Of a DNA stretch of 29,727 nucleotides, positions 511 through 29,727 are shown in pieces (within the stretch, counting starts at the first letter, position 1; each line of letters starts with the position of its first letter). The DNA comes from a virus. Lineage: Duplodnaviria; Caudoviricetes. Location: the IMG/VR virus record IMGVR_UViG_3300011335_000409, positions 1-29,727 of that record; one strand, given 5' to 3'. The notes below the pieces were generated by a model. It did no database searches. It saw only the letters and a program-made list of their open reading frames with translations, and was not told the DNA's origin. The position numbers were made by a program, and so were the translations under genes.

Positions 511-844
511 TGTTGAGTGGTTGATGATATGTCCCCCTTTCGTTATAACCCTCAACAAGTTACTACGATTGGGGGATTCTTTTTAATGACGGTGCGAATA
601 CGCTTGGTTAAAAGGAATAGCGTTACAAGGGGATGATGGCACAGCGCAGCGGTAGCATAAAGGACAAAGCCGTAAGACCATCACACGAGCCGAAAATCGT
701 GTTAAAGTAGTGTCCAGGTCAAAGGTCATCGGTGACACTTTGAAACTTGAAGGTGAAAGAACTCATTCGACTGAATGATAATTAACACTTAAGAGAGGAT
801 GACAACTGATGTTAAAGTCAGTTAGGATATTCTCATTCTCTCTT
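511..844 (+). ncRNA. Candidate large structured non-coding RNA, family unknown
   Basis: No ORF of 60 aa or more; at least 8 helices tile the region, plus two pseudoknot pairings (see findings). Confidence 0.65.
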
Positions 845-22173: not shown

Positions 22174-22965
22174 TTAAAATAATTTAAGTTGCTTCATTGT
22201 TGTGTAACCATTTAAAACTTTTTCGGTATTTGGACTAATAAGGTCTGCAAATTCTATTTCGCAGAATGTTCCACAATCTGGAACTATTGGGGGTTCGTGT
22301 TTACCTTCATTGGGTTGTAATTCATCCAAAAATCTATTTTTGATACACGAATGACCTGCAATTCTTTCGGCTTTTGCCATTCGTTCAAATTGTTCGGGAA
22401 AGTTTTTCCTAACATGATTCCAATAACCCTTCCCACCTTTAACGCATCCAATACAATTATTGTTATGAAAGCCTAATTCGTACATTTTAGGTAATTTTAT
22501 TCCATTCATTAAAAGCAATTCAGCGCATTGTTGTTTGGTCATTTGCTTATCAATGAGAGGGTATAATGGCTTTGAACTTGGGTATTGTTCCGAAAATCTT
22601 ATTGCCCTGTTAATCTCTTTCTTGGAAAATTCAAACCCGAAAATCTGACCTTCAAATTCAATTTCTTTTTCTATTGCAATTCGTACATCCTTTTTTAAAA
22701 CCTTTGTACAAGCCGCACCACTTGCACCATTAACATATTTAATTTTTTCAATAACATCAAACTGGTCACGATATTTGGAACATCGTCTTCGTTCTACTTT
22801 TACACCCATCCATTCTTCACATTCTTCAATGAATCGTTCATTGTCTTTGTGTGCTGAATCAATCTCGATGTAAAACAATCGCACATTGTCTTTACCATAT
22901 TCATCGATTGCTAACTTACAAGCAATGGCGGAGGTAACACCGCAACTAAACCAACCTATTATCAT
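22174..22965 (-). CDS. PAPS-reductase-like (adenine nucleotide alpha-hydrolase fold) protein
   Basis: N-terminal PP-loop WFSCGVTSA, ACTKVLK, NNCIGCVKGG and C-terminal CGTFC. Confidence 0.8.
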   Translation of the reverse strand: MIIGWFSCGVTSAIACKLAIDEYGKDNVRLFYIEIDSAHKDNERFIEECEEWMGVKVERRRCSKYRDQFDVIEKIKYVNGASGAACTKVLKKDVRIAIEKEIEFEGQIFGFEFSKKEINRAIRFSEQYPSSKPLYPLIDKQMTKQQCAELLLMNGIKLPKMYELGFHNNNCIGCVKGGKGYWNHVRKNFPEQFERMAKAERIAGHSCIKNRFLDELQPNEGKHEPPIVPDCGTFCEIEFADLISPNTEKVLNGYTTMKQLKLF

Positions 22966-24260
22966 TGAAATGCATATTTACCAAAGTTTCTTTTTAATTC
23001 GTAAAATGACCGCATAATTATGGCATCCGCAAAGTCGGGACTTAAGCCGTGTCGCTTCTTTAAGTCCTCTTTGTTAGTCACTCTTAACTTTCCATCACTA
23101 TCCAGTTTCTCGCGCCTTACCATTTCAAGTTCTTTAACTATCGTGTCCTTGTGTGTTGGTTCAAACGTGATAAGGTTGTTCGTGATTAGTTCACCAAGTT
23201 TAAAATAACAATCGGATTTAAGGTTCATATAGTTATCACGTATCGCTTTTGAACCGTTCAAGAATCCTTTACATCGGATGTAATCCACTGCACCGCCACC
23301 AATACCATCTTCATCCACCAACACATTTGAAAGTTTGACATTGTGAGTTCGGATAAGTTCGTTGACTATTGCCACCGTTTCGTTAATCGGTTTGTGTTTT
23401 AGAACAATGAACTTTTCAGCGTGTAATCCATCCCACAATACAATCACGGTTCTATCGTCACCCATTCGCGCAATGTCAGCAGTAATGTACTTATCGCCTT
23501 TCGTTTGTTGTGGTCTAAAACAACGCAGTAAATCATCGTATTCATACAAGCGGTCTTTGGTTTCGTCATAATCCCAATCACCTTCTAACAACCTTTTGCG
23601 GTCAATGTCGGGAAGTAGTTGTAATGATTCTAAATATACTGGCGAAATATGTGGGTTGTCAGTTGGCAATGCTTGGATAAAGTCGCGGTCTTGCCTTATC
23701 GTTCCGTTACGCTTGGCATCAAAGAACTCGGAGTAAAGCCAACCTTTGTGAGGATTGCAAGTGAGCAATATCTTTGGCTTGTCATCTACCAATTTATAAC
23801 GCATACGAGAGGATAAGATGTCGATACACTTTTGACTTACCTCTCCTGCCTCATCTACAAATGAATCGGTTATTTCTATTGAACCGAACCTTTGGAACTC
23901 GGGGTCGGATGGCATATCGGCTAAGTCCATTAGTATCGTTTCGCTACCATTGTACCATTTAATTACGTGGTCTTGTCCGTTATATGTATAATGTTTGCCA
24001 GGAACAAGTCCATATTGAGCGCACAATTCAAAGAAAGTAGCCATTGTACTCAATCGTAACTTCTTTAACTCTGCACGACCAATTAAACCGCGTGTACCTG
24101 CGTATTTCAACCGTCTTTTTATTTGCCAATCGCAACCGAGGAACGACTTGCCTCCGCCAACTCCTCCACCATATAACACTTGTACTTTTTTAGAATTAGT
24201 TGATAGTGCTTCTAAAGCATCAAGTTGTTTTTTATGATAATTTATTGAACGTGCTTCCAT
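22962..24260 (-). CDS. terL: Terminase large subunit
   Basis: Walker A YGGGVGGGKS, Walker B SFVDEA, TCNP coupling motif, and nuclease motifs ADIARMGDD and SPDFADA. Confidence 0.92.
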   Translation of the reverse strand: MEARSINYHKKQLDALEALSTNSKKVQVLYGGGVGGGKSFLGCDWQIKRRLKYAGTRGLIGRAELKKLRLSTMATFFELCAQYGLVPGKHYTYNGQDHVIKWYNGSETILMDLADMPSDPEFQRFGSIEITDSFVDEAGEVSQKCIDILSSRMRYKLVDDKPKILLTCNPHKGWLYSEFFDAKRNGTIRQDRDFIQALPTDNPHISPVYLESLQLLPDIDRKRLLEGDWDYDETKDRLYEYDDLLRCFRPQQTKGDKYITADIARMGDDRTVIVLWDGLHAEKFIVLKHKPINETVAIVNELIRTHNVKLSNVLVDEDGIGGGAVDYIRCKGFLNGSKAIRDNYMNLKSDCYFKLGELITNNLITFEPTHKDTIVKELEMVRREKLDSDGKLRVTNKEDLKKRHGLSPDFADAIIMRSFYELKRNFGKYAFQ

Positions 24261-24829
24261 CTTCTTAAAATTGCATCTTTAATTGTATGATGACTAACTC
24301 CGTATTCTTTGGCTAACATTTCGCGAGTATAAATTCTTGGTTTGAACTTTTGACGAATCTCTTTTACCTGTTCTTCATTTAGTTTAGACATTCCGTTTTT
24401 TGATCCACGCGCTAATGGTAAATAATCTGGATTACCATTATTTAAAAATCTACCATTTATTTTTGAATGATAAGAATTTTCTTTAGGTGTAGCCCATTCT
24501 AAATTAGATACTCGGTTATCATCACGTTCAAAGTTTATATGGTTTACCTGCAATTTGTTTAATGGATTTTCAATCCAAGTTTCAGCAACTACGCGATGCA
24601 TTTTCACCGTCTTAAATTTACCATTGATTAATAGCATTGTGCGGTAATAACCATTGGCATCTTTTGCAGGTTTCATTATAGTACAACGTTTTGAACCGCG
24701 ATAACCAGTAGTAAGCAATCGCCCCATATTACTAACTAAATATCTATTGTTAGTGTTGGCAACGTATCTCCATTGTTCATTAGGCAAAGAATCCAATTCA
24801 ATCCCTAAACTTTCTAATGTGTAATTCAT
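24242..24829 (-). CDS. NUMOD4-HNH homing endonuclease with C-terminal HTH
   Basis: EQWR..Y.VSNMGR (NUMOD4); HRVVA...VNHINFERDDNRVSNLEW (HNH). An alternative start lies at 24847. Confidence 0.9.
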   Translation of the reverse strand: MNYTLESLGIELDSLPNEQWRYVANTNNRYLVSNMGRLLTTGYRGSKRCTIMKPAKDANGYYRTMLLINGKFKTVKMHRVVAETWIENPLNKLQVNHINFERDDNRVSNLEWATPKENSYHSKINGRFLNNGNPDYLPLARGSKNGMSKLNEEQVKEIRQKFKPRIYTREMLAKEYGVSHHTIKDAILRRWKHVQ

Positions 24830-24883
24830 AGTGCTAAAATACAACATTTATACATTGAATGTGCAACCAAAGTAATAAAGTTA

Positions 24884-25657
24884 TTAACTTAACTTTGCTT
24901 TAATTCGTTCTTGCAAAATATGACTATCCATAATATCCGCGTATAACAAACGCATTATCCCTTGGCGAACTTCTAAATCAAAGTTCTCCTTTTCAATGCG
25001 TTTCATATTAGTGACCGCGTAATTGGACAATCCCTTTTCACTGCAAAGATTTTGGAACGACATAAACTTGAACTTTTTCCACTCGTCATCACTCCAACAG
25101 TCGGGATGAATCGCGCCAAGTTCCTCGAACTTACGCATCATTGATGGCGCAAGTAACATAACCGCAACTCTTTGCCCTTCCTTCCATCGTTTCAAATCAC
25201 TTTCAAACATTGCTTTGAAATCAACTGGAGTATCGTCTATTGTAGTTGTACCAATGGACAACTTGGCTTTCTTTCGGTCAATATCCAAGTTCAACTGCAT
25301 CTTGTAAATCTTATACGCGTTCAACACATCTGATAAAAACTGAATTGACATAAGACCGTAATGTTCTATTCGCTTCCACGCCATTCCAACTGCATTGAGT
25401 TGGAACGCTAAACCGATTTCAGCAATGGTAAAGAAGCGGTAGTATTGTTGAGCAGTGTCGTATAGCATTTGCGTTTCCTCTGGTGACGGAAGTTGTTTAA
25501 TTCCGCTTATAACGATTCCCTTTGCAATTAACGATTTAAACATAGGTAAGGTGGATTCGCACACCTTTGTTTGATTTACCGCCTCTAAATAGGCTCTTTC
25601 GTCATTCGTCAAGCCATTGTTGTAGTGCTGACCTTTGTACTCTACCAAGTTGCTCAT
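24884..25657 (-). CDS. Replication-region hypothetical protein, possibly helicase loader-like
   Basis: 257 aa, directly after the initiator-like gene; function inferred from position only. Confidence 0.55.
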   Translation of the reverse strand: MSNLVEYKGQHYNNGLTNDERAYLEAVNQTKVCESTLPMFKSLIAKGIVISGIKQLPSPEETQMLYDTAQQYYRFFTIAEIGLAFQLNAVGMAWKRIEHYGLMSIQFLSDVLNAYKIYKMQLNLDIDRKKAKLSIGTTTIDDTPVDFKAMFESDLKRWKEGQRVAVMLLAPSMMRKFEELGAIHPDCWSDDEWKKFKFMSFQNLCSEKGLSNYAVTNMKRIEKENFDLEVRQGIMRLLYADIMDSHILQERIKAKLS

Positions 25658-25976
25658 TTTGATTATTGTTTTTAGTTACAAATTTACTTAAATCCCAAGC
25701 GCTACGCATTGCCGCTTTCCAATCTTTCATTTTATTTTTGCCGTACTTCCAACCTGTATTGGTGTAATGGCTGATAAAGACATCGGCAAAGTTAAGCGCG
25801 TCATTAGATGATGACATTGGAAGTCGCTCCAAAAAGTATTCCGCTACTTGCTCGGATGTTGGTGGAGTGAAATTCGTTCTCGGTGTCTTTTGATGCAACG
25901 AAGATATCATCTCTTCTATAGCAGATATTCTTGAATTTAACAATGCTATTGCGTGTTCTACTTGTTGTTCGTTCAT
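25602..25976 (-). CDS. Replisome-organiser C-terminal-like domain protein
   Basis: FTPPT.EQV..YF...HY...GWK.GKNKMKDWKAA.R.W motif. Confidence 0.7.
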   Translation of the reverse strand: MNEQQVEHAIALLNSRISAIEEMISSLHQKTPRTNFTPPTSEQVAEYFLERLPMSSSNDALNFADVFISHYTNTGWKYGKNKMKDWKAAMRSAWDLSKFVTKNNNQNEQLGRVQRSALQQWLDE

Positions 25977-26421
25977 TGATTCGTTTTGTTAATTTGTTAC
26001 AATTATAACCCATTTGTTCCAATTCTATAATAGCTAATCTAATTTTGTTTTTAAAAGAAACATCTACTTGACAAAGATTGATTGCCTTTTTTACCGAGTG
26101 GATGATGGTTGCGTGGTCTTGCTTGAATAAGGTTAAACCAATTTGGCGTAACGTATAGTTTGTACTGGCAAAGATTAGAAAGTAAATCGTTGCCCTTGCA
26201 TCTACAATTTCGCGTCTTCTAATATTCGACCTTAAATCAGTTATGTTTACCTCATAAATATTACTTACTATTTTAATGATATCCGTTTCAATAGATGGAG
26301 TCATTTCTTTCTCGTCCAAGAACTCAATCAATTCTTGTCTTGTATGGTTGTTAAATAGTTCAAGTAATTCGCGCCCATTCTTAACGCGATATTTAACCAT
26401 AAAATCAATTAATTTACTCAT
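25804..26421 (-). CDS. Protein with a DnaA domain IV (Bac_DnaA_C)-like HTH
   Basis: R.REIVDAR...TLRQIG....QDHATIIHS matches the DnaA C-terminal signature. Confidence 0.8.
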   Translation of the reverse strand: MSKLIDFMVKYRVKNGRELLELFNNHTRQELIEFLDEKEMTPSIETDIIKIVSNIYEVNITDLRSNIRRREIVDARATIYFLIFASTNYTLRQIGLTLFKQDHATIIHSVKKAINLCQVDVSFKNKIRLAIIELEQMGYNCNKLTKRINERTTSRTRNSIVKFKNICYRRDDIFVASKDTENEFHSTNIRASSGILFGATSNVII

Positions 26422-28244: not shown

Positions 28245-28269
28245 TGTGCTTTTGTTTTTGTTTGTTGAG

Positions 28270-28301
28270 CAAATATATATACATTCTTTTCTTCATTCCA
28301 A
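28270..28301 (-). promoter_or_regulatory. Consensus Bacteroidota promoter TTTG-N20-TATATTTG (leftward early promoter)
   Basis: CAAATATA at 28270-28277 and CAAA at 28298-28301 on the + strand. Confidence 0.8.
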
Positions 28302-28366
28302 ATTTATTTTGAAAAAAAATAAAAGTATTTTGTTTTTTGTAGGTTTTACAAGGGTTGTAGGATGTA

Positions 28367-28385
28367 ATTTAGACGTATTCTAAAT
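28367..28385. promoter_or_regulatory. 19-bp palindromic operator, Fur-box-like
   Basis: ATTTAGA-CGTAT-TCTAAAT, 5 nt before the ATG at 28391. Confidence 0.65.
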
Positions 28386-28390
28386 AAGAA

Positions 28391-29255: not shown

Positions 29256-29727
29256 AGAAATGTTCACCTATCGGATGGAGATTTGTTCAGCGTGTCCGAT
29301 ATTCAATAAGACAACCCGAACGTGTGGCACTCCACTTAACAAACTAAACCCATTTGCCGAATGGCACGAAATGAATGGGGTTAGGTTTAAGCCTTGTGGA
29401 TGCTTTATGGATGTTAAGGCAAGAATGGCTCTGCAAGAATGTCCTGCAGGTCTTTGGGGTTCGGTTGTGGATAATGACAAAATTGAAGAGGCGAAGGAAC
29501 TTATTAAAGTAATTAAGGAAAGCGGAAAGGTAACTGGCGAACAACGCAAAGTTCTTGGTCAACTCAAAGGAATAATTCAAGGCGGTAAGGCGGTATCACT
29601 TCGCCATTGCGTTGTATGTGTCAACAAGTTAGTGGATGAGTTAGGTCATCAACTTAAAAGAGAGGAATCGGAGTTAATCACCGAACCCATCACCGAATCA
29701 ATCACCGAACCACAACCCAAGAAACGT
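29245..29727 (+). CDS. Cys-rich putative metal-binding protein (~168 aa), continuing across the circular junction to the stop at 275
   Basis: ATG at 29245 overlaps the sigma gene end. Reads MTNKEMFTYRMEICSACPIFNKTTRTCG...PCGCFMDVKARMALQECPAGLW...HCVxC, is open to the contig end and is in frame with 27..275. Confidence 0.85.
   Translation, partial: MTNKEMFTYRMEICSACPIFNKTTRTCGTPLNKLNPFAEWHEMNGVRFKPCGCFMDVKARMALQECPAGLWGSVVDNDKIEEAKELIKVIKESGKVTGEQRKVLGQLKGIIQGGKAVSLRHCVVCVNKLVDELGHQLKREESELITEPITESITEPQPKKR
29477..29727. repeat. Right copy of the terminal duplication; unit genome 29476 bp
   Basis: Direct alignment to 1-251. Confidence 0.95.

Follow-up and report, generated by a model that had tools for sequence, protein, structure and literature searches.

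The window, meaning the whole 29,727-nt stretch of viral DNA analysed here, is a circular phage genome, nearly complete (99%) at about 29.5 kb; it has a terminal repeat of 251 nt (1-251 versus 29477-29727), whose copies are 96% identical, which suggests an assembly of strain variants. As for its layout, a structural operon of about 20 kb is on the + strand and the replication block on the - strand. The gene for the terminase large subunit (22962-24260) belongs to the early block, and so is encoded on the other strand than the TerS-like gene (1288-1578), in 22 of 22 genomes; accessory genes are patchy, with an HNH/NUMOD4 endonuclease (24242-24847) in 4/22 genomes and a PAPS-reductase-domain gene (22174-22965) in 3/22.

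Between two + strand genes, and away from the divergent junction (28245-28390), there is a gap at positions 461-909. The initial annotation had described it as the largest ORF-free tract, and with 449 nt it is the largest gap among the called genes, the runner-up measuring 184 nt. It had also placed one promoter before the region and another one before the next gene; both boxes were found, at 500-507 and 882-889, and a TATCTTTG/TATATTTG/CATCTTTG-like box occurs upstream of 49 out of 49 parsed copies of element A (below). The TAnnTTTG type of box, which we take to be the Bacteroidota -7 box, would place the host in the Bacteroidota; transcription would start near 510-511. Regarding replication signals, neither iterons nor clusters of DnaA boxes were found; GC skew tracks gene strand, and the skew at four-fold sites is uninformative, with no switch at the gap. 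The features of the locus are the following.

500-507, + strand: first promoter box, CATCTTTG, of the TAnnTTTG type, with TTTG at 474-477
510-587, + strand: element A, leader RNA with two crossing helices (pseudoknot/terminator), 49 distinct homologues
583-868, + strand: element B, multi-helix RNA of about 285 nt, candidate origin RNA, 37 distinct homologues
594-597, + strand: GNRA tetraloop capping the first stem of B, in 36 of 37 homologues and in all four GYRA forms
662-715, + strand: pseudoknot of B, 662-666/711-715, crossing 634-639/678-683, 649-653/669-673 and 684-688/697-701
716-844, + strand: 3' helices of B, namely the hairpin 716-747, 763-768/773-778, and 791-802/833-844 enclosing 804-809/818-823
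866-905: AT-rich stretch of 40 bp whose duplex is the least stable in the window (first of 83 peaks), candidate unwinding element
882-889, + strand: second promoter box, TATATTTG, followed by the 118-aa gene, the TerS-like gene and the structural operon

Structures of elements A and B

Element A is built on two helices that cross each other, P1 (511-522/547-557) and the terminator-like P2 (532-543/565-576), which contains a tandem U-U mismatch; it ends in a U-rich tail (577-584). P2 is the stabler one, at -16.2 versus -10.9 kcal/mol, and compensatory changes occur in both helices among the 49 distinct versions. The element comes after a promoter in nearly all of 65 close loci. A descriptor that combines the promoter, a 5' helix crossing a terminator stem and a U-tract has A as its sole match in the window, and it recovers A in 17 of 17 clade genomes along with 13 further short matches, regarded as chance. 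Upstream of module D (next section), three loci (L003, L004, L009) have a second version of A, unrelated in sequence, in which both the crossing helices and the tandem U-U mismatch recur.

As for element B, its 5' stem reaches 576-618, absorbing the U tail of A. This stem had been drawn with a GCG-AATA-CGC cap, which the comparison does not bear out: the homologues pair 588-591 with 601-604 and keep the GNRA loop, as GCGA (10), GUAA (9), GCAA (9) or GUGA (8). All the helices listed in the initial annotation exist in the sequence, and two that it omitted have to be added, the crossing helix P2 of A and the pseudoknot of B. In the latter, 4 of the 37 homologues have both sides altered at two adjacent pairs; these four are related, and the two double changes are probably one event. 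A possible second pseudoknot, 620-624/643-647, is invariant and was excluded from the scored structure. The weakest helix of B is 763-768/773-778, since it has no two-sided change, and it carries a U-U mismatch in 26/37 homologues. Each strand of one helix of B is present twice (763-768 and 833-838; 773-778 and 797-802), and RNAalifold prefers the alternative pairing of 763-768 with 797-802; this predicted alternative is possibly a conformational switch.

Covariation, which had been proposed as a check on the RNA, is found: across the 37 distinct homologues the 71-pair structure of B has 96.4% of its cells paired and two-sided change at 18 pairs, figures that overstate independence, as the structure was drawn from the same alignment on which it was scored and the homologues are closely related (87% column identity). 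None of 500 shuffles equalled it, and slid controls paired at 36-45%. B does not occur beyond one phage clade, so that few independent events stand behind its covariation. Folding energy, also proposed as a check, gave a moderate result, with z = -3.05 on the + strand and -2.36 on the - strand for 500-860; for B taken alone z was -2.5, and one of 20 coding-region control windows was lower (-3.3). With a folding energy only moderately low, the homologues were needed to show structure, and it is the covariation in their sequences that shows the structure of B to be real. G-U occurs at 18 pairs versus A-C at 5, a sign of + strand RNA.

A conserved short ORF, which would have offered another explanation of the region, is absent; a 51-codon frame on the minus strand is intact in 4 of the 37 homologues. 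The RNA had been reported as one without an assignable family, and the search agrees with this: none of the Rfam 15 covariance models matched the window above its gathering threshold, the best hit having E = 0.15 and 20 bits versus a threshold of 50, and ARAGORN reported neither tRNA nor tmRNA in the window. Two candidate motifs were rejected: the weak ops/JUMPstart-like match at 642-659, because these bases pair inside a covarying helix, and the interpretation of GUGCG at 592-596 as part of a group II intron, because these bases vary as a GNRA loop.

Regarding the distribution of B, it occurs in none of 14 members of the sister clade, which has about 50% identity in the 118-aa gene. Among the matches listed in two scans with 14-base patterns, most were due to chance, at least three were new copies of B and none was a distant homologue. 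A match in GTDB (L451), on a 4.9-kb contig in a Rhizobium bin, has the same B as one metagenome contig; it was treated as a stray phage contig and rejected as a clue to the host.

Modules of the gap and replication genes

The downstream 118-aa gene was used to recruit 80 loci, and comparison of the gap in the 65 close ones showed it to be modular. A and B are separate modules, since relatives insert 100-260 nt of tRNA-like or other elements between them, or replace B outright; the stand-alone RNA of about 335 nt proposed in the initial annotation holds as a structured + strand RNA, and falls apart into these two units. The place of B is taken in other genomes by either of two structured modules, here called C and D: among the 65 loci, 20 have B, 15 have C and 23 have D, with exactly one module in 58 loci and two in none, and the seven without a module are all truncated upstream. 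Of 79 distinct A matches in a wider set, 78 are followed by one module; two of the 78 were read by eye, the 79th is a chance match, and B is oversampled in this set.

The three modules are mutually unrelated, and the profiles of B and C do not match each other. Module C is a covarying RNA of about 330 nt, with two-sided change at 28 of 90 predicted pairs in 11 sequences; as seen in L010 (2628-2959), it has an end-to-end closing pairing, GNRA-like loops and an apparent covarying loop pseudoknot. Module D (about 165 nt) consists of a covarying hairpin pseudoknot followed by a G-rich run and then by a pyrimidine mirror repeat, the arms of which measure 20-27 nt; among 19 distinct copies, both arms are shortened jointly in L004 and L009, and they have matched interruptions in L022 and L047. 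A pyrimidine mirror repeat is unable to base-pair as single-stranded RNA, so it suits triplex DNA. In module D (L002 2780-2946 for reference), an A faces a G at the mirrored interruption in L047, L053, L058 and L369; such a facing pair would fit the G.T-A triad of triplex DNA.

B, C and D all lack a match in GenBank phages, and the Rfam search of C, D and the other leaders gave no match apart from tRNAs. No description of RNAs A, B, C or D was found in the literature; in a survey of csRNAs of up to 151 nt that used IMG/VR, the parts searched, including seven supplementary files, hold no match, and two large further files of the same work may hold models of A or of parts of B (PMC10690425). A, B, C and D represent four RNA families absent from Rfam.

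The tRNA-like extras of the gap are variable, being gained and lost among relatives. They lie between A and B or D in L013, L019, L021, L023, L029, L046, L063 and L440; their acceptor stem and D/T arms are constant, while the anticodon arm is replaced and is often long, and they are called by ARAGORN once (tRNA-Leu, L029) and by Rfam three times. A conserved hairpin module of about 130 nt is found between A and B in L015 and L016, with related ones in L063, L428, L440 and L446; Rfam gave no match to it in the loci scanned.

As for the genes that accompany the modules, in 22 genomes no family tracks the module type by its presence, with the exception of a 78-aa ORF that goes with C, and no allele of 29 core genes tracks it (smallest p = 0.016, uncorrected); near-identical replication proteins accompany B, C and D alike. 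This is as expected of a cis module served by host factors. The 78-aa ORF stands directly behind C (L001, L006, L028, L045, L060), in 4 of 6 C genomes, and was found behind C only.

The meltable tract that follows the module ranks first in its genome in 7 of the 9 genomes with B, 4 of the 7 with D and 1 of the 6 with C, and it ranks fourth or better in all 16 genomes with B or D. In the window it overlaps the second promoter, and so it may partly be promoter DNA; the genomes with the top tract after the module include some that have no promoter box at this place. The top tract of G001 is at the second promoter, behind the 78-aa gene, so that the tract may simply mark the promoter. Near the 3' end of B there is no G-run, its only G4 being at 629-632.

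Three genes of the replication block bear on the function of the gap.

24884-25657, - strand: 257-aa protein, directly downstream of the truncated initiator, no Pfam match
25602-25976, - strand: 124-aa protein, the C-terminal half of a phage replication initiator without the N-terminal DUF6291, from homologue comparison
25804-26421, - strand: 205-aa protein with a DnaA domain-IV (Bac_DnaA_C) fold, from domain scans

The 124-aa protein matches a 'replication initiation protein' of a Porphyromonas phage, which is itself followed by a DnaC-like loader, and PF19808 is present in 7 of its 10 longer homologues. The missing domain is lost throughout the clade: of 16 near-complete genomes none has DUF6291, whereas all 3 controls do. 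From its position, the 257-aa protein is the probable helicase loader; it has no match in GenBank phages or GTDB genomes, and the DUF6633-bearing clusters that the atlas offered for it are a lead only. Seven genomes fetched from the sister clade have neither the 124-aa nor the 257-aa protein. The 205-aa protein is the most variable of the 29 core genes (36% mean identity), and its fold makes it a possible rival, as an origin-binding protein. Polymerase, primase and helicase are all absent among the window proteins scanned (scans of 21, 19 and 9 proteins).

Regarding leaders in other phages, the A-type descriptor is matched at most 600 nt upstream of the initiator gene in 12 of 23 low-GC loci (about eight distinct leaders), versus 0/21 downstream and 1/23 on the reverse strand as controls; in higher-GC loci the count is 2/41. 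In eight whole records that bear an initiator, six out of ten descriptor matches precede it and four lie elsewhere; the leader of L601 has the same tandem-U-U stem as A. The leader that elsewhere precedes an initiator gene thus introduces, in this clade, an RNA module instead. The DUF6291-type initiator operons of these aquatic low-GC phages resemble the window in their promoter-pseudoknot-terminator leader and in the C-terminal domain of the initiator; they differ in having a full-length initiator gene behind the leader, where the present clade has an RNA module and no DUF6291.

The replication-origin model and its alternatives

Taken together, the locus is probably a transcription-dependent replication origin, a moderately confident reading that draws on likeness to the origins of the lactococcal phages of Ceduovirus, with which there is no sequence homology. 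According to the sections of PMC7150918 used here, those origins are of three unrelated non-coding types located between two promoters, they work without phage proteins, and they need a non-coding transcript, whose mechanism is described there as suggested only. The resemblance to the c2, bIL67 and 923 types, with their PE1 transcript, covers the ORF-free region between two promoters of the same direction and the occurrence of three unrelated types, conserved within type, one per genome and without a dedicated phage partner, as far as these sections tell; in addition, the c2 and 923 regions have runs of G7-G9, like module D. However, neither sequence comparison nor covariance models matched B or D to the three Ceduovirus regions, and C gave only sub-threshold matches; the present module is preceded by a pseudoknot/terminator leader, with tRNA-like genes that can intervene, and the phage keeps a truncated initiator and a probable loader. 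Furthermore, the Ceduovirus origin, in the same sections, lies between divergent early and late blocks, whereas the gap does not.

The R-loop origins of ColE1 and T4 would be looser analogues. Like ColE1 RNA II, which in the part of PMC4412123 consulted needs a G-run near its 3' end, the gap would produce a long folded transcript from an upstream promoter, proposed here to open the origin; the G-run is matched in module D and absent from B. As for a counterpart of the antisense RNA I, there is no minus-strand TAnnTTTG box, the one promoter type looked for, in 500-909, and control would come from the attenuator-like leader instead. T4 oriF and oriG, as presented in the same part of PMC4412123, also have a promoter followed by a highly meltable tract, a likeness confounded here by the second promoter; T4, however, encodes its own replisome, while in the present case a conserved, tertiary-structured RNA of about 285 nt stands between the promoter and the tract.

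In the proposed mechanism, the promoter at 500-507 would drive transcription through the gated leader A into B, with A metering read-through by its more stable terminator helix. B would fold while transcribed and stay on its own template, as an R-loop or open complex, thus keeping the AT-rich tract open, where the host helicase or priming machinery could load without an origin-binding protein from the phage; the truncated initiator and its 257-aa neighbour may help to load the host helicase there. Since the phage proteins show no co-variation with the three unrelated RNAs, opened DNA is a likelier target for them than one particular RNA fold. The RNA may also serve as the primer, in the manner of ColE1, where RNase H cuts a persistent RNA-DNA hybrid and Pol I extends it.

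Several observations argue for such an origin: the slot is obligatorily occupied by a single one of B, C or D, behind a leader that elsewhere precedes an initiator; DUF6291 has been lost, and the proteins scanned include no polymerase, primase or helicase; no gene tracks the module; a meltable tract comes after B and D, and D has its G-run and mirror repeat; and Ceduovirus would provide a precedent. Others argue against it. The tract follows C in just one of six genomes and may simply mark the second promoter, B has no 3' G-run of the kind required by ColE1 RNA II, and the skew at four-fold sites does not switch at the locus. A-type leaders are not exclusive to initiators, given the four of ten matches elsewhere, and 11 of 23 low-GC initiator loci have none; the covariation of B comes from one clade, and the DnaA domain-IV protein could define the origin by DNA binding instead.

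The initial annotation had offered packaging, a protein sponge or a ribozyme as possible roles, all of which fit worse than a replication origin, a role absent from its list. The sponge belongs to a broader possibility, in which B is an RNA acting in trans, as a protein sponge, anti-defence decoy or RNP scaffold, from a cassette of small RNAs, and an arms race picks among B, C and D as alternative cargoes. This seems unlikely: the gap of relatives does also contain tRNA, tRNA-like genes and small hairpin modules, B and C are compact and pseudoknotted, C being closed end-to-end, and no phage partner tracks B, C or D, but such accessory cargo varies in number while B, C or D is always present exactly once. 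Moreover, the mirror repeat of D is a feature at the DNA level, and the clade has lost DUF6291 and has its A-type leader pointed at an RNA. The position of A and B, on the same strand as the structural operon of about 20 kb and just upstream of it, together with the terminator anatomy of A, would also suit a cis-acting antiterminator or attenuator leader, for which the put RNA of HK022 is the model, and G009, G011 and G018 have no promoter box directly after B; yet the box at 882-889 serves the downstream genes in the window, and the G-run, the mirror repeat, the meltable tract and the lost initiator domain are left unexplained, which makes this role distinctly improbable.

As for packaging, the DUF5681 TerS-like ORF begins about 420 nt after B, a proximity that could indicate a packaging signal or a pRNA-like prohead RNA. 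We hold this to be very improbable: the alleles of the TerS-like protein (78-97% identical to that of the window), TerL, portal and capsid do not go with the type of module, TerL itself is a Terminase_3 enzyme of the ordinary kind, and no Rfam pRNA match was obtained. The chances are slimmer still that B is a ribozyme that cleaves or splices itself, or a mobile intron-like element; its pseudoknot, GNRA loop and invariant single-stranded motifs would be in keeping with one, but Rfam gave no ribozyme or intron match, and there is no empty-site allele, because B replaces C or D and does not insert into a fixed target.

Returning to the replication origin, a bolder version of it can be put forward, tentatively and with considerable doubt, in which a folded RNA took over the origin-binding half of the initiator. 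DUF6291 would have been discarded and the helicase-recruiting half kept as a free protein; any of the three RNAs would then mark the origin under the old initiator leader, and the tethered nascent RNA would recruit the truncated initiator.

In conclusion, RNA-driven phage origins have been characterised in few systems, and this clade would offer an independent case; as its three well-defined covarying folds occur in near-identical genomic backgrounds, swap experiments are easy to design. The locus would also document an evolutionary path on which a protein-initiator operon gave way to an RNA module behind the same leader, and it may be of practical use as a marker of origins in uncultured phages without a recognisable initiator.
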